Source: Lytechinus pictus (taxonomy: Eukaryota). From it: DNA of 64,000 bases. A program made the position numbers and the translations under genes. The notes below the pieces were generated by a model that had not been told where the DNA came from, searched no databases, and worked only from the letters and a program-made list of their open reading frames with translations. Shown here one piece after another: positions 58 to 64,000 of this stretch; the stretch's first letter is position 1; every line of letters starts with the position of its first letter. Where the stretch lies: NCBI RefSeq assembly GCF_037042905.1, contig NC_087245.1, positions 20,090,001-20,154,000 of the forward strand, written 5' to 3'.

Positions 58-1207
58 CCTGTGGTATATGCGCAAACTTTAACCTCATTCGAATACATGA
101 GTATCGACTAAAAAGGATCATGGAAATGAAAATTTACTTGCATAGTTTTCAACTCATGCCTCTGCCTGACGAAAATGACCATCTGAAAGCAAGAAACTTT
201 GGCATAAATATTCTTTATGCTGAGTGAAGGCCAAAAAATGAACGCTAAACAACCCAATTAACAACAAGAAGCTCTGGCAAATATCTTTTGAAGGCTCTGT
301 AAATATAGAGTCAACTTTTACACAATCATACCTTCTTAGAATTAATTACAACCACATGCTCAATATACTAACAAAGAGAGCCAACCACAATTACAAATTC
401 CTTCCATCACTTTGACAATTCCAATAACAGGAATCCATATTACGGTTCATAAGATATGAAATCAAGATCAGAATCTAGATGATTGACCAATCAACCTAAG
501 GGACCACCCCACCAAACATATTTTGACCAGCTTCATGGTATCAGATGCTTTCATACCCACAAATTACAAGAACTTATTCAGGCCTTACGGACTTTATAAT
601 TGATTTGTGCGTTTCACACCCACCTGAATTGGATAAAGTTTCAATGGTTATCAGCCAGCAGGAAGACTCATTCATTCTTATACAAAAAAATAGGCCCCCA
701 AAACAAATTCTTAACCTCATAATCATATCCACAGTTCTCGTAGTTTGCTTTCCCATTGCAAATATCCCTTTGACAGTAGGAAAATTCTTGCAAAAGTTCT
801 CATAATTTTTGAAAAAAATAATTACTTGAGCATATTTTTTGGGGGATATCATTGATTTGCTTGCAGGCTAAACAGCTGACATTTTCTGATCTGAGTAAAA
901 TTACCAATCGGAATATAACAGGTAATTTTTGTGACCAATTAGGTATGAAATTCCTTATTCATATCCAACTCACTGTATTTGTAGTAGGGATAAAAACTGA
1001 AAAATAAATAGCATAATGCAAGGTGCACATATCTGCAGTTGATGGTTTCCCCAATTACCTATTCCCCCCATAAAATACAGAAAAAATATATCTTACATCT
1101 TTATAGTACAAGGTTCATATAGTTAAAATATGGATTCTGTCAGTTACTTGCAATGCATCGTCATCTCGGCCCAGCATAAACATTTCTCACATCTGATGGC
1201 TACATGA

Positions 1208-30756: not shown

Positions 30757-31080
30757 ATAATAATAATGATATAGAGTATTTATAAAGCGCCAAATCCACA
30801 TTGATTATGTGCTCAAGGCGCTGAAATATACTTGGTATATTATTACCCCGGCTGTAGCTGAGCGGCCATATAGGCTATATGGCCGCTCAGCTACAGATGA
30901 TATAGGCGCTAAAGCATTCAAGGAATAAATCCTACCGGGTACCCATTCACCTCACCTGGGTCGAGTGCAGCACAATGTGGATAAATTTCTTGCCGAAGGA
31001 AATTACGCCATGGCTGGGATTCGAACCCACGACCCTCTGTTTCAAAGTCCGAAGACTAATCCACTGGGCCACAACGCTCC
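30757..31080 (-). mobile_element. Full-length tRNA-derived SINE
   Basis: The minus strand begins GGAGCGTTGTGGCCCAGTGG (A box 31061-31071), has B box GGTTCGAATCC (31017-31027), a non-tRNA body and an (ATT)n tail; close paralogue at 59560-59852. Confidence 0.9.
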
Positions 31081-53990: not shown

Positions 53991-56399
53991 TTCAAATTAC
54001 GCTAATTCCTTAAGATCTTTACGGGATTATACGAGTTTGAAGTCGAAAATAGTGAGTTAATTCAATTGCCATGGATAACGACAGATTCCAAGAGGGTCAA
54101 AATTATGCTTAAAAGAATCATTGGGTCACCACTCCAACTCATATGCACCCCTTGACGTCAATTTGGCGACCTTGATATTGGTATTGCTATATCTTGGAGG
54201 CATACATATCAAGATGCAGCCTTGAACCACGCGGATAAAAACGGCGTCCATCATCTTACCCCCAAGTTTATTCTTCTCAAGAAAGGACAAAAATCAATTC
54301 CGACCATAGGGGGTGATCTGCGACCCTCTGGCCCTGGAGTGGAATATTGTACATCCTTCGCAACCCTTTGGAGGATGCAAGACGAGAGAGGAGTGGAGGA
54401 ACTTGAATGGCAGGAGATTCGAAGGATTAACTAGCTATGGGGTAGTGTGGTGTAGGGGGTCACCGGATATCGGTATCACGAAGATGGAGGGAAGGTGCCA
54501 ATGATGAGGAAACAGAGGAAGAGGCCAAAGTAATGTAGGGCTGAATTAGATGCGAAGAAAACAATACAACTGGCACTGACGATGAAAGTGGAAAGAATAT
54601 GTTGGAAGGAGGGGTATGGTAATATACGGCAGTGAATACAGTAATTAACAAAACGAATCAGGATATTGGTGTAAAAACTTTAAATACGTCAAAAACATGA
54701 TGACTGGGATCGTTACTACATGATTAGATCTTTTAATGGGCTCATTCTAATTCTTGTCCACTTCTTTGTTCCAGAATGGGCTTACATCGATTTCCCAAGT
54801 TCTTGGTCAAAATGACTATTTACTTCTGATCGCGCGCCCGCATGGTACGTTTGTCGTCTTTAGAGGAATTAATTTTCTGTTGTTTTGTTAAAGATTTATT
54901 TTCTTATCAAGGATGGAGACCAACGTTTCCCCCCCCCCTTGCAATCAGAACGGGTTGACCTTGATCCTTGGGGGAAATGAGCACTCACGAGTATTACTGC
55001 TTCTCAACATGCCATTGATTTTGGGTTCATCGTTGTTGGGGGAAAGTGACATCCATCTCTTCTCTCTAACTTCCCTTTTCCCCTCTCATCGTTTCTTCCT
55101 TTAAGCTCTCTCCCCCCTTCCCTTTCACTGACATGCCCCCTATCCTTCTTCTTTAACTTCTCAAAGTTGTACCTCTTCAGGTTTACGTCAGTGCTTATGT
55201 TTATATCCCCGTTAATTTTATTTATTAGAACATTAAAATATATATACAGTGAATGTAGATCTCTTGATCGAAAGGAGCGAAAGAAATTATGAGAAATTAT
55301 AATGAGGTGTAAGCATGTGAAATTGTGAATTGTCGATCATCCCTTATCATGTGAACGACATCAGACATCACGCTTATGAATGATAAAAGGTTTCAATTCT
55401 TAATGATATTGGAGAGATGAGCGTAGTAACACAGAAATGTAACACGCACAGTGGTTGGTCCATTATTTACAATATGAGAGCCGAAAACAAATCTAGATGA
55501 GGATGTTCCTCAGTGTCATGGCCCTGGATTGGAAAGCGGGGTGCTGAAAGTGTCGTTGGTATGCAATAATGTAGAGATTGTACCGAGATAAACATTATTT
55601 GGGAGTGGAAACTTATGAACCCATAATTGTTTGCTTGTCAAGTTTTATTTAAAAAAAAACAAGCATCCCCTCTTAGAAAACCGCTCCCAGACAGACAAAA
55701 AAGAGTTTGTTCATCAATTGACCCAGGCGGGTCAATTCAACATATAATATAGAAAAAGTCTAAGAAAATTGTAATCTGCACCCCTCTATTTTCAAATATG
55801 CTATTTGCGCCCCTCTTTTTCGAATCCTGAATTGGCCACTGCAACCAAAGGACAAAAAGGAACACTCGATATTATAGGATGGACCTAAAAGCCTTTCTAA
55901 ATTTTTGGTAAAGGGAAATGTGATACACGTTAAAATATTATCCTTTAAATTCTATTAAGTGTTATAGCCTTCCCTTCATCTCTCTTGGTTCGTTGATTCT
56001 CAATGAAAATGCGAATTTAACAGTTGAGTTTACTTTATTTTGCATTGCACAAGTGCTATATAATTAAATTTACTATTTTATACTATCTGACAATGAATCT
56101 AAACTTTGAAAAATTGATACTCATCAGATTTACCAAAACTTAATAACATTCTTAATTTAAAGCACAAGGATGTCCTATGAGGAGAGGACTATTGATTTAC
56201 CCCCTCCAAAACCCCTGGTAGATTACTTCCCCCAACAGGCCACATGAATATCGGTTTAAAGTGACAGTATTTTTGTTTAATACTGTATATATTTTACAAA
56301 AGAAAGAATCATTAAAAGCATTAGACATCGACGAAACAACTTGTGTGATATAACAAATAAGAGAGCCAAATCGGATTTCATGCTAATGCAGAGTATAGA

Positions 56400-56525
56400 C
56401 GGAGAAGTAGAGGGAGAGGTAGAAGAAGAAGAAGAAGAAAAAGAAGAAGATAAAGAAAAAGAAGAAGACGACGACGAAGAAGAAAAAGAAAGAGAAGAAA
56501 AATGGAGAAAACGCAGGAGAAAGGT
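56400..56525. repeat. (GAA)n/(GAC)n purine-rich simple repeat
   Basis: Direct reading; source of the poly-E/S/F ORFs at 56277-56650. Confidence 0.9.
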
Positions 56526-59500
56526 GGAAAATATAAGGGCAAATAATAAAACAAGATTGTGAAGTCGTTGGAATAAAGAAAAAAAAACCAGAGGAGGAGA
56601 ACAAAACAATTAAAATAGAAATGAGTATGAAAATATGACGTAGAACACAAAATGAAGAAAATAAGCTAAATAAGAAACCAGGAAGGAAACGGGGATAAAG
56701 GCAGCAATGTAAAACAAAAAATAGTTTGTGGATGGATGATCGTACTTAGAAAGGAAAATTAATTACAGTGGATAATACATAATGTTAATTACCAGACAGC
56801 TGAATAAAGATAGATAATTGCTCCTTGTCAATCAGCTTGAATCGAGTAACGTGAAGACTGATATTGTCACCGGAATGTACAGATAAGATTTATAATATTT
56901 ATCAATATAATCTCTAGATGAGAGAAGGTTAATGAACAGATGAGATGGACATGATATTCACGTGGACATCGTTGGGGCCCCATGAAGGTTCAAAGTTTAT
57001 TCTTTGTCACATAATGTGTTTTATTTTTCACTGTCACTTTTATCAAGGAGTTTTAAGGGTTCCGTGACATTTGCTCTCTGGATGGAGAACCATCCAACCC
57101 ATGCCCTTTAAACCACTTTGATGCCGCAGTGATGAAATATGTCAGGCATAATTTACGTTTCATTAGATTTTTCTTGCAGATTGTAGACAAAATATCGCTA
57201 CCTAACTACAGACTTACTGGCCAGATACAAAAGGAAATATGATTTTCAGTTTTTGTAATGATAATTACTTTTCGCTGCCTCTGGTCAGATTTTATGAGCA
57301 AACACGTTGTAAACTTTAACGGGGGAAAGCAAAAATAAATGCTGCAATATTTATTGAAACATGATTTTAAAATTTCTCGACTGGCCGCAAGTGGCCGCAA
57401 CTGTGACACGTTATATCAAAGATATATATATTCCCTGAAACTAATCTTATTTGTTGTAATGTGGAAATGTATGGAAATTTGTCAAATGTTGATTTAAAAA
57501 TTATGCGTATTTGTCCATGTTTAAAGCTGACAACGATGGACACCAAACAATACCCCTAATTTCTAGTACCCAGAATTTATTATATTTAGCATAATTTTGA
57601 AAGCGAATTCCCATTGTTTATCCATTATTCAGGGAGTTCGTCAAATTGAAGAAGTTTCACTAAGGTATCTCATTTACTAGTACTAGTCCATAGCTGTGCT
57701 GTGGAACATTTGATTAAAAAAACAACAAGGTGAACACAAAGAGAAACGCATGTTCCACTTTTCGAAAATGAGTTATTTGAAACCTTTAGTTATGTACAAC
57801 ATATGTGCAGTTTTACGCTATTCCCTGCATACCTGACATGGTAGCAACATATTTACAACAAATGAGAGCAAAATATATATGAAATATGTAGATAAGTTAA
57901 TTGCATCAGATGAATACCCTGTTTGAGCACGTCACATTTTGGTGTCCTCAAATTGACTATTTTTCCCATAAAAAGCCTTGTAAAATGAAAATGACTTTGT
58001 TTTTTATCCTAGTTTTTCTGTACTATCTCTACATCATGGGATAAGGATATCTTTAAATATACCAACAAATTTGACCTTATAATATTTGAAATATGACATG
58101 TTCAAAACTCTGTTGGAAAATCTCTCCACTATCATAAAAATATTCATATGAAATATGAAATATCTTACATTTACAACTGCCTCTATGTTCTTTCTCAATT
58201 TTAAGTGAACATCCACTTCATAACACCTTTTAGTACAAATACTGTGTATACTAGTATCTCCATGTTGCATGTATCATATTCATAAACACTTATCTAAAAC
58301 TGAAGTAATATATTCACTAATTTTCTTACCATACTCTCATACTCTCTCCCTCTATCTCTCTCTCTTTCCCTCACCCTTTCCAAACGTTTCCTTCTCCCAA
58401 TGCCCCCTACCCCTAAAAAAATATGAAAGGATTAAAAGGAAATAATGGTTAATGGTTACAATAGGAGATCAATAATTTGAATGTGGAACTTGTGGATAAT
58501 GATAAAAATGACATGAAATATTTGATAATGGCTATGAAGATTAGACTTTGAGTACAATTTTGTAGTAAATGGTCATAATTAAGAATTATGTTTGAAGTAC
58601 CATTTCATTTTACTCAAATCAGAACACTTTCACACAATTGGATAAAAAATGAGAATAGAACTTTATAAATGAATTATCTGTAAATTACAAAGTGCAATGA
58701 AAGTTTCTTCTCATCATTCAAATAACTCAAGTAATATAATATTTGAATTTCCCGAATAATACAGGTCAATTTAATGAAAAGACATTTTTCATTTAAAAAA
58801 ATAAGTCTTAGAATTAAGGTGTTGGCTCTCTGCAGTGTTAGCTGGAATGAAGATCAATGTTCATCTTGATTTTCATTCATAACTTTCAGACTTAGATTCA
58901 TTTTATAAAAATGGATCAGAATTGCCGAAAATATCTGAGAAGTTAGCAATTTTTTTTGCAGGTACATACTATCAAAGTGCCAACCACATGAACTTTAAGA
59001 ATGAATGGGATTTCCTGTTTATGCAACATATATGCAAATCATTGTGCACATAGAAAAATGCCGCGGTGAGTGCCCCAGCATAGCATTGAAATATATGGAT
59101 CATGTGTGTGATCATTTGAATAGTTTTAATGAAAATTCACCCAATATCATATCAAGATTATGTTATTCAGAATCATCGTCAATTCCACTATCGCACAATG
59201 ATATTTACACTGATAGACGCTTAATTTGAAACTAAACATTTTTTGGAAATACCTTTAAAAAAATATATATTTGCATACCGCCATGTAAAAGGAAAAGATA
59301 CAATAAGTTTATGGCTGCTTGGCCAGATATTACTTGGTCAAGTTCTAGACTGTAAGACAATGGCTAAACCCACTTGGTTTATTATCAAAACATTCTAAAT
59401 TTGTTCAATCATCATTAGGGCTAATTATGAAGTTATTTCATAATAAAAAGGTCTGAATAAGAAAATAATTTTTCTCAAAACTTGCCCTGCTTGAATTACT

Positions 59501-59559
59501 TGGAACGAAAAAGGGCAATAGTCAGGCCTGGAAATGGCTTGTATGATTTCTTTTATCAT

Positions 59560-59852
59560 TAATAATAATCATAAAAATAGTTCTTGTATGGCGCACAACA
59601 CATTATGAATAACGTCTCTATCTTCCAAAGAACTTGGATATTATTACCTTGGCTGTAGCTCAAGCAACCTTCCAGTGCTCAGTGCATTTAAAAGAATAAA
59701 TTCCTGCCAGGCACCCATTCACCTCACCTGGGTTGAGTGCAGCACAAAGTGGATAAATTTCTTGCGGAAGGAAACTACGCCATGGCTGGGATTTGAACCC
59801 ACGACCCTCCATTTCAAAGTCCGGAGACTAATCCACTGGGCCACAACGCTCC
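59560..59852 (-). mobile_element. tRNA-derived SINE, same family as 30757-31080
   Basis: Near-identical 5' half (CTAATCCACTGGGCCACAACGCTCC; CCCATTCACCTCACCTGGGT); B box variant GGTTCAAATCC; (ATT)n tail. Confidence 0.88.
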
Positions 59853-59967
59853 GCTGACTATTAGCCAAGGTTGGATTGCGTGTGTTCTTGCTCAAAGCCA
59901 GCAAAAGGGAAAAGGCAAATTTTATGCTTCATTTCACATAAATAAACATTTCGCTTTTGCTCTGGTC

Positions 59968-60148
59968 CAGGGGTGTGAGTGGTCACAAATAAAAAGATCT
60001 GAAAAAAGCTGAAGAGTGTTGAAAAAGTCTGAAATAGAAAGAGCTCCCATACTTTTTGTACAAAGGCCAAAAATAAGCTGAAATTAAGCTGAAAATCAAA
60101 ACAAAAAAAATCTGAAATCAGATAAAAATCTGAACTCTCACACCCTTG
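59968..60148. mobile_element. 181-bp hAT-superfamily MITE
   Basis: TIR CAGGGGTGTGAG/CTCACACCCTTG (1 mismatch); 8-bp TSD CTCTGGTC/CTCTGGCC; many AA(G/T)CTGAA subterminal motifs. Confidence 0.8.
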
Positions 60149-60922
60149 CTCTGGCCTTATGTTTTCAACAATACCAGTCATAAGAGTTTGAACAAAATCA
60201 AAGACAGCTTCCAATTTTCAATGATTCACTATGTGAACAAAATTTAAAAAAAAATCTGTCAAGAATCATATCAAAGAGGTCTACCAGTATCTAAATATTT
60301 ACAAATAATTGGACTAACACAGTTAAATGGCACTACTTCAACATCCAAATAAAAATCATATGAATAATAATACTTTTGCAGTTATTTCATCATCCTCGGC
60401 AATGTGTTGTGAAACGGTTGATACTTCTGGGTACATGGAGCTAGACAAACATCTAATCATCTGGTTTTCTTTGCATTATTTACAAGATGAAATTCCTCTT
60501 AGGTTGAAAAAAAATTAGCTTGTATATCTGATTGAAAGATATATTTGACAGATTGTTTATCGACTTGAAGATAATTAATCCTCACTCACACACAATTAGT
60601 AAAGATAGAGATTCACAAAACATCTCATGTACAAGATGGATCACTGACCAAAAATGTAAATCAAGTGAAGACACTCAGCATTCGAAGCAAACTTCTTAAG
60701 ATCTTCCTGACTACATTCCTCCAAAAATTAACAGAAAATATATTGCAGGAATAATAAATCAATTTTGCACCTCGCAGACTTGATATTTGTGAAATTCATC
60801 AAATATGTTTTGCAGTCATGATGATGTATAACATCTAGGATGCTTGGTGTCTGAAAAATCTCACTGTTTGTCCAGCAACTGCCATTCTTAAAGGAGACAC
60901 TCTTAAAGATAAGACAAACTCC

Positions 60923-61082
60923 TCATTTTCTGATGTTCGCATATCTTACATGTTCTTGATCTGAAATCTCCTCATTGAACGTCTTCATTCTGTTCTTGCT
61001 CTTCAAGATCTCATACCGATTTTTGTCCACACTCACTTTGGCCATGGCAAATGATGAAACACCTATCACAACGATGCCAGCC
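60923..61082 (-). CDS. Exon 2 (last coding exon) of a 65-aa single-pass membrane micro-protein, DUF4748-like
   Basis: Acceptor gtttactttccacag|GGCTGGC; encodes (W)AGIVVIGVSSFAMAKVSVDKNRYEILKSKNRMKTFNEEISDQEHVRYANIRK*; phase 2 matches exon 1. Confidence 0.85.
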
Positions 61083-62189
61083 CTGTGGAAAGTAAACCAC
61101 GAGTTAGACATAGAATTACTCAAGAGGCCAAGTACCATTGCGCACACTTGCAATTTCTCATGCACCAATTTGTCCAGGGAAATTGAGTAACAGTATTTTG
61201 CATTCCATATGAGCAAAATTAATACAAATATCAGGAGAGTTTTTCATTAAAAGAAATAGTATGAATTAATTAAACTGTAAGACAATTAATATGACCATTC
61301 ATTAAACCATCAAAGCTACATATAAATAATATAAAGTACTGATAAGATGAAAAGCTTTTCACTACATACATAACTAATGAGAGAGGACAAGTTACAACAC
61401 TACATGTACATCATTAAACCTGTTCAATAGTCATTAACACTAATACATCACAAAGGCCAGGCAAGAATGAAAACATTTTCTGGGGATAAGAAAAAAAAAG
61501 AAAAAAAAAATATATATTATATCTACCACCTCCGGAACTAAATCAGATCAGCAGAACAACAAAGTTTTGACCATAACCGAGGCAAAACATGTTTACTACC
61601 AGTCTACCACTGCATAAGCCATGTCCACGATTTTAACTTTGACACTGACCAAGCTTTTGCCCTCAGGCCTATATACATGTAAGTACGTTGTGTGATTACC
61701 TCTACGAAATTATTGTCTTCATTCTTAAAACTTTACCCCATTCAGCACTCAATTTCACTTATGGTGGAGTGACCTTAATTCATGTATTATTCTGCGAACA
61801 GTCTTAAAGATAAAATCTGCATTTGTGAAAATATTGGCAAAACATTGGCTTCTGCAGTCGCAAGTATCGCTGTGGCCACCGGCCACGTATTCTGGCGATT
61901 GCAATGTTTTCGAATCAGCGGTGAATTAATAACGTGCGAAGATAATAAGTATGGGCTTTAAATCATTGATTTTGATACTGATCAAAGCATAGACATGGAG
62001 TGAAATAGAGTGAAACACGAGAGTACATCTCACAGATTCATGGTTAAGGACTATTTTTGCATCAATTTAATCGAGCAGACCACCAAAAAATCCCACCTTT
62101 GTGAATCAATGTGTCAATATCTATGGATTTGTGTAGTGTTAGCAGTACCAAAGTGTAGTGGAACATACACGAACCATTACCTGGCTTAA

Positions 62190-62427
62190 AGGTCAAGTCC
62201 ATTTCATACAATAAAATACAAAAGAAATAGTGAGTGGATGACGTCATAGTCTCCTCATTTGCATACCAGCCTGGATGTGCATATAACTGTTTTGGGAAAT
62301 TAAGCAAACATTAAATACCATAACTTTTTTTATTTTATATGGGATTTTGATGAAATTTTCAGTGTTATGCTTGTTCGATTTTTCTCTTTTTATTCAAATC
62401 AACTTTTTGTTGGGGTGGACTTGTCCT
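62190..62427 (-). mobile_element. Internally deleted MITE family A copy with both ends and TTAA flanks
   Basis: TTAA|AGGTCAAGTCCA joined directly to the distal ~225 bp of the 34231-type body, ending GGACTTGTCCT|TTAA. Confidence 0.85.
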
Positions 62428-63804
62428 TTAAGTATCCATATAATATTCACTTAATGTTATGTTTTGCCCTCATTGGTAGATCTCTACTCGTATAGTGACT
62501 GATTGTATTACTGACCGGCCTTGTATTTGTATCACCACACGCCCGCATTTACGCCTCAGAAAATAAGACAATACCTTTAAAACTTTGCAACATTATTCCA
62601 AAGGGAAATTGAATAGAAAAAAAGTGCAAAATTAAAAACCCCAAAACACACTTTCAAAGTCTTTATTTTCTAAAAATAACAAAATATGGTCAAACTTTTC
62701 CCCACAGAAAACACACGCTCAGTAATACAACACCATTTTCAAGTGACAAAAATATTTCAAAATGCGATGAGGGATGTGATTGGAAGCTGACAGCGTAAAA
62801 AAGAAACTTATTATTATAACAATTATTTATAATCACTATTAAATTTTAGTATTTGTTAAATAATAATTTTTATGTATACATTGTTCTTCAAAACGGCACT
62901 TTGTAACATCGCTAATAGTAGCTACATCATAACGAAGCGGTTCAAGGGTCAGATCTATTGTATTTGCTTTGTTGACAAACGGATCGAGGGATCTACACAA
63001 GATCGGTCTGGTAAGAAACCTTCAATTTTTCGCCTTTTCATTAACCAATTTTGGAAACCGTCATACGCATTAGGCGTATGAAGGTGTAAAAGTAAATAAA
63101 ATCACCATTTACGTGATTTTTATCTTGAAAAGATGGATTTCCTAGGGAAATCCATCTTTGTTTTGGTGAGTCTCTTATACATATATGGCAGGCGGTTCAA
63201 GGCTCCATGATGATCGTATATGTCAAAATATTGAAAAAAACATCATCATGGAGTCCTCAAGCCAGGCTAGTTCTTGGCTCCACTCACCAAATACAGAGAC
63301 CGAAGTTCTAGCTCAATCTGTACAGGGACTCAATGGCCATACTATAGTTTATGTCACTCATTCAATGAACAAGGTTTATGTATTAAATTTGGATAAAACA
63401 GGGAAGTGAAGTTGCACCACAGCCAAAGTAAGTCACTGTTTTTTCCCATTATAAGTTTATTTTTCCCCGTTTTGGTACATTTCAGGCCAAAAAGGAATTT
63501 AATAATCTTTATTTTGGTACTTTTGCCTTTTGGTAGTTCTTTTTATGAAATAAAGACAAAATCAAAAATCGATGAGCCCCGTCAGGGGGATTTTGCATTC
63601 TTAACCCCCTAATGATGGCTGCACGATAGCGAGCCTTACGTGTACGCAGGAGAAAATAAAACAAAAAATGTTAAAAAGCTCCTCGAAACAGACGGCTGCC
63701 AGCTGTCTAGGACACTTCACCACCATTACCGCACAGGAATCAACATGTGGGACTACAGTCTACAAATATCGCTCATCATCATGATTTTCAACCGTACAAC
63801 TCAC

Positions 63805-63842
63805 CAACTAAGCATAATTTTTGCCGATTTACCAAGAGCCAT
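63805..63842 (-). CDS. Exon 1 of the 65-aa DUF4748-like micro-protein, MALGKSAKIMLS(W)
   Basis: attATGg start context; 38 nt; consensus donor TG|gtgagt; joins exon 2 to rebuild a TGG Trp codon and a 198-nt ORF. Confidence 0.85.
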
Positions 63843-64000
63843 AATTCATTACTTGCTTGAAAATAATTTCACAATAGAAATGCGATTAAACGGCGATGAG
63901 TCTTTGTGAGTTTGACTCTTTCTCCAACAGTCAACACTGATTCAGGCAGCGACACTCCACTTTCATAACCGGTACTTTTACGGTATACCTACTTTTACCC

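Follow-up and report, generated by a model that had tools for sequence, protein, structure and literature searches.

A two-exon Lytechinus pictus gene for a 65-residue DUF4748 protein and its possible likeness to respiratory-chain assembly factors

PET117, SMIM20, UQCC3, CBP4, COX6C and CEBPZOS are mitochondrial single-pass inner-membrane proteins, and most of them are complex III or IV factors. The published description of Coi1 (YDR381C-A), a 114-residue protein of Saccharomyces cerevisiae, presents it as an assembly factor of the complex III-IV supercomplex, without which complexes III and IV do not assemble properly, and places it in the inner membrane with one transmembrane (TM) helix at residues 11-30, no presequence and its C-terminus in the intermembrane space (PMC5620370). 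Coi1 function requires a conserved basic C-terminal region at about residues 85-102 (PMC5620370). According to that description higher eukaryotes have no Coi1 homologue, a statement repeated in two reviews (PMC5877523, PMC8790184), and no paper on a metazoan Coi1 orthologue was found in the literature searched.

The gene described here lies in a 64,000-nt stretch of Lytechinus pictus DNA (hereafter the window) and encodes a new member of DUF4748 (PF15932), a eukaryotic family that is itself already catalogued and is uncharacterised. No paper naming DUF4748 or PF15932 was found in the main texts searched, and no tie between yeast Min9 and PF15932 was found. Based on our analysis, it is almost certain that the gene is real and belongs to DUF4748.

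Gene structure and transcripts

The coding sequence lies on the minus strand in two exons, 63842-63805 (38 nt) and 61082-60923 (160 nt), which join in frame to encode a 65-residue peptide. The 2722-nt intron between them (61083-63804) is of the GT-AG type and of phase 2, splitting the Trp13 codon, with a GTGAGT donor and an acceptor made up of a pyrimidine tract and CAG. Unspliced, exon 1 meets a stop directly behind residue 13, whereas the frame of exon 2 stays open for 54 codons reaching into the intron. The 65-residue ORF is the longest of the spliced transcript. A sequence-only reading of the window had proposed this gene, and its coordinates, splice sites and peptide proved exact, the 38 + 160 nt giving a product identical to its 65 residues. 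It also held that the ORF track mis-assembles the locus, and a plain ORF caller does list a wrong 97-residue, TTG-started ORF at 60923-61216 that extends into the intron. The model is a sound correction to annotation: the gene is short, an intron splits it, and ORF calling goes wrong on it.

RNA evidence came from four runs (X1, X17, X21 and X24, of 24 listed) aligned to 59880-64000. X24 is raw RNA with species label B; X1 (guessed to be RNA), X17 (kind unrecorded) and X21 (stranded RNA) bear label A. The features of the gene are as follows.

63843..63964, minus strand: 5' UTR of at least 122 nt; contigs reach 63960 (X1) and 63964 (X17), and the true start site is not fixed
63829..63849, minus strand: candidate uORF of 6 codons from an out-of-frame upstream ATG, the sole ATG of the 122-nt leader, overlapping the main start
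63805..63842, minus strand: coding exon 1, which holds residues 1-12 plus two of the three Trp13 bases; its ATG is flanked by A at -3 and by G at +4
63818-63805, minus strand: predicted TM helix, exon-1 part, residues 9-13
61083..63804, minus strand: intron, GT-AG, phase 2, containing dispersed repeats such as 62201-62432; junction in 3/4 runs
60923..61082, minus strand: coding exon 2, which holds the third Trp13 base, residues 14-65 and the TGA; RNA depth in X24, X1 and X17
61040..61082, minus strand: predicted TM helix, exon-2 part; helix residues 9-27, the best Kyte-Doolittle 19-mer
60971..61075, minus strand: DUF4748 (PF15932) match, spanning 16-50 in the full protein and 12-47 of the 52 profile positions
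60116..60922, minus strand: 3' UTR, about 807 nt or longer; the contigs end at a repeat, which leaves its far end unfixed

The upstream ATG stands 7 nt before the start codon and out of frame with it, and the candidate uORF at 63829-63849 could damp translation of the main ORF.

The junction 61081/63804, which skips 2722 nt and has CT..AC ends, is present in three of the four runs, so that the splice proposed from the letters alone is borne out by RNA; the fourth run, X21, is without exon-2 depth. In X24 the junction is crossed by 21 raw RNA reads from 18 starts, and X1 and X17 hold one junction contig each, of 1123 and 1126 nt, covering 63960/63964-63804 and 61081-60116/60121. A rival reading, in which the gene is the unspliced 97-residue ORF, or else the transcript has no coding role or stems from a decaying pseudogene, is very improbable and largely refuted. 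The ORF caller does list that ORF, and the exon-2 frame does run open into the intron. Against this, the bin 61122-61259, adjoining the acceptor, has zero depth in all four runs, and the intronic extension of exon 2 is therefore unused. Moreover, among the 60,193 stop-free 13-mers in the six frames of the window, the exon-1 peptide ranks first in likeness to the N-termini of relatives, scoring 33.25 against 21.0 for the runner-up and -15.75 for the intronic alternative preceding exon 2. A tblastn search with residues 1-13 of one such relative (P0006) matched 63842-63804 at E 0.96.

A non-coding or decaying transcript is also at odds with the pattern of substitution. Among the 40 listed rows, of 423, in the table of differences from the window, five for X24, which derives from another species, fall in the coding sequence; four are synonymous and the fifth is V17I, and further coding changes may lie in the other rows. 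The synonymous excess among the differences in these rows has a rough binomial P of 0.007-0.034. The database protein P0002 keeps the frame at 84% identity. Both expression and conservation of the frame hold up. At the sequence level, the differences show purifying selection on the 65-residue frame. The idea of a bicistronic transcript with a second ORF was dropped, as none of the other ORFs looks conserved: six ATG ORFs of at least 21 codons end outside the coding sequence (22-35 residues), the 35-residue one having 3/3 listed differences non-synonymous and the 34-residue one a single, synonymous difference.

X21 has no depth over exon 2 or the 3' UTR (60156-61121) and a depth of 0.3 over the exon-1 bin, while the intron repeats are covered. 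The 8.7 million records sampled make up about 6% of this run, and the alignment may drop reads without notice. X1 and X17 bear the same label A and hold the transcript; the blank may be due to tissue restriction or to a library effect.

The window is AT-rich (29-40% GC per 2 kb) and eukaryote-like, and no paralogue of the DUF4748 gene was found within its 64 kb. Just past the mapped 3' UTR lies an interspersed repeat (59600-59860, minus strand) with 91.5% identity over 165 nt to 30917-31080, whose head, by eye, looks tRNA-derived and SINE-like; read depth at 59880-60155 is at repeat level, and Rfam gave no match on 54000-64000. The intronic repeat at 62201-62432 has very high read depth in all four runs and eight further matches in the window. 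Some of its copies form opposite-facing pairs (12564-12796/12946-13402, 34226-34456/34602-34800 and 52983-53205/53485-53666), an arrangement like that of a non-autonomous DNA transposon with long terminal inverted repeats. On the plus strand, 56281-56562 is a stop-free, Glu/Lys-rich frame over an AGA-type repeat, with no Pfam family at cut-off; it could be either an exon or simple-repeat sequence. None of the neighbouring ORFs reached a Pfam cut-off among the 30 of 139 stop-to-stop ORFs scanned.

Membership in DUF4748

The queries in the family searches were exon 2 alone (P0001, 52 residues) or database proteins. P0001 matches DUF4748 with 29.5 bits (E 6.5e-07; gathering cut-off 27), its sole Pfam match, and all six members of alignment A4 match the family too, so that the DUF4748 label, first suggested by a residue pattern, now stands on a profile score. 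Among 1.84 billion representatives, phmmer returned five hits, four of which pass the DUF4748 cut-off. The fifth, P0005, is internally repeated and has no DUF4748 match; it was set aside as a chance hit together with its cluster P0007-P0014. Profile searches added P0015-P0017, which likewise carry a DUF4748 match. One relative, P0002, has 84% identity to exon 2; in the comparison over residues 14-46 it is identical at 26 of 30 positions, and the others (P0003, P0004, P0006, P0015 and P0017) at 17-19 of 33. Twelve positions are invariant in seven sequences: G20, S23, F24, K28, V31, D32, R35, E37, I38, S41, K42 and R44.

The exon-1 peptide shares 6-7 of its 13 residues with the N-termini of each of four relatives (P0003, P0004, P0006 and P0015), whose profile matches start at positions 2-4 (for P0015, by alignment). 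The N-terminal part of the DUF4748 profile (positions 1-11) thus appears to be present, indirectly, through the likeness of exon 1 to these relatives. Like its relatives, the window protein has the 12 invariant residues and the N-terminal pattern S-K-x-x-K-x-x-x-S-W, and its length is that of the short animal-type members (62-75 residues). Its C-terminal tail (47-65) alone differs, as it does among all relatives.

Gene structure varies within the family. P0004 is encoded as one unbroken ORF at 935-1162 (plus strand) of the metagenome contig L001, whereas the window gene has an intron in its Trp13 codon. P0017 appears to be a read-through of genomic sequence: its position 13 is Arg and follows a stretch rich in pyrimidine codons, as in the window gene. 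Judging from the protein only, another animal may have its intron at this position too. L001 was the single metagenome contig carrying a relative among 144 candidates, and none of 24 pattern matches on viral contigs was confirmed. Two hits among 6988 longer candidates were rejected as fusion proteins, both looking like upstream read-throughs of the short domain. No fungal DUF4748 member surfaced in the protein-database searches for relatives.

In the language-model Atlas, where 0.9 is the trust line and scores below it are leads only, two DUF4748 clusters of 56-63-residue proteins, commonest in arthropods, rank first, at 0.90/0.88 for P0001 and 0.95/0.93 for P0006. With P0006, an unnamed cluster of 59-residue proteins, commonest in Streptophyta, takes rank 3 at 0.88; as a lead only, it is possibly a plant branch of DUF4748.

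Protein layout and proposed role

The protein carries two basic residues at 1-9, no charge at 10-27, and seven K/R and two D/E at 28-46. The best 19-residue Kyte-Doolittle window is 9-27, with a mean of 1.99. A structure model of the exon-2 part is one continuous helix (pLDDT 69.8, pTM 0.31), with pLDDT of 74-81 over the first 30 residues and 53-64 thereafter. The basic N-terminus, hydrophobic helix and charged helical tail of the sequence-only reading are recovered in these features. The 12 invariant positions cluster on one face of the helix at about 209 degrees (R 0.42, p 0.04), a marginal value drawn from seven non-independent sequences, and the clustering suggests a docking surface extending from the membrane into the soluble side.

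Structure comparison found no solved relative by PDB sequence search, Foldseek or VIA-align. Foldseek with the exon-2 model gave no matches, and the five matches of profile A2 in the PDB sequence search (E 0.36-4.5) are all at chance level. VIA-align scored highest (Z 5.9) on long helices of a generic kind; a chain of yeast III2IV came seventh (Z 5.7, 0% identity), level with unrelated rows, and was not counted as evidence.

In the explanation that we favour, the gene is a housekeeping-type nuclear one. Its spliced mRNA, 1.1 kb or more in length, has a single substantial ORF, which encodes the 65-residue DUF4748 protein. The predicted layout is a short basic N-terminus, a TM helix at 9-27, a basic helix at 28-46 and a variable tail. 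The protein would insert into the mitochondrial inner membrane without a cleavable presequence, a location that we regard as probable. There, a stripe of G20, F24, K28, V31, R35, I38 and K42 on one helix face would dock on a partner, the likeliest being a subunit of respiratory complex III or IV or an intermediate in their assembly, and the protein would function like PET117, UQCC3/Cbp4, SMIM20 or yeast Coi1, as a small single-pass chaperone or stabiliser. By analogy with these proteins, our tentative best guess is that it may serve complex III/IV as an accessory protein or in assembly. If the family is indeed a respiratory-chain assembly factor, a function would be gained for a whole DUF.

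The named Atlas families that follow DUF4748 are PET117, SMIM20/MITRAC7, UQCC3, CBP4, COX6C and CEBPZOS, at 0.83-0.87, and like every neighbour outside DUF4748 they fall below the trust line. They lend weak support to the mitochondrial location, which the sequence-only reading had thought plausible. Among the best ten family hits, two alone share a family, and the neighbour scores may reflect a generic shape of TM plus basic helix. An N-terminal TM with basic flanks is the layout of many outer- and inner-membrane microproteins, and on this ground the protein may be mitochondrial with a role outside complex III/IV, as an outer-membrane anchor, a partner of MICOS or import, or an accessory of ATP synthase or complex I. 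This is rather unlikely, and the Atlas neighbours lean, weakly, towards complex III/IV factors instead.

A location outside the mitochondrion also has to be weighed. Near the N-terminus, 18 uncharged residues in a row can act as a signal anchor, and those present here would suit an ER or secretory protein that regulates a membrane enzyme or transporter or forms a small subunit of it. The absence of the transcript from X21, hard to square with a respiratory factor that is used everywhere, could reflect tissue-restricted use of such a protein. However, the named Atlas neighbours include no ER or secretory family, and we infer that the strongly basic helix after the TM, together with the Gly/Ser-rich, moderately hydrophobic TM itself, is more typical of mitochondria. 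A signal-anchored ER or secretory protein is unlikely, although it deserves some weight.

Comparison with respiratory microproteins and Coi1

The single-pass respiratory-chain microproteins nearest to the window protein by language-model features are PET117 (PF15786), SMIM20/MITRAC7 (PF15061), UQCC3 (PF15141), Cbp4 (PF07960) and COX6C (PF02937), which it resembles in size and in having a single TM and a charged helix. With P0001 and the six A4 members as queries, no HMM match to PET117, SMIM20, UQCC3, Cbp4 or COX6C was found up to E 10, and none of the true DUF4748 members hit a mitochondrial Pfam family as well, which speaks against such a role. Accordingly, these five are candidates for how the protein works, and not families to which it belongs.

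The TM and flank of Coi1 may resemble DUF4748. Like Coi1, the window protein has a single N-terminal TM (9-27, after 8 residues, against 11-30 in Coi1) and no presequence, a generic feature, and its C-terminal part is charged. In contrast to Coi1, it ends at residue 65 and is without the required basic region beyond 85; because those basic residues are absent, it is not classed as a Coi1, and it may work like one. Going by this putative resemblance, DUF4748 could conceivably, if improbably, be an unrecognised wider family of Coi1, of which invertebrates and some other animals keep a shortened complex III/IV or supercomplex assembly factor. Should an animal counterpart of Coi1 exist in this form, the statement that Coi1 is confined to fungi would be corrected, and the window gene would be an echinoderm-type member of the Coi1 family, reduced to the TM and the first basic helix.
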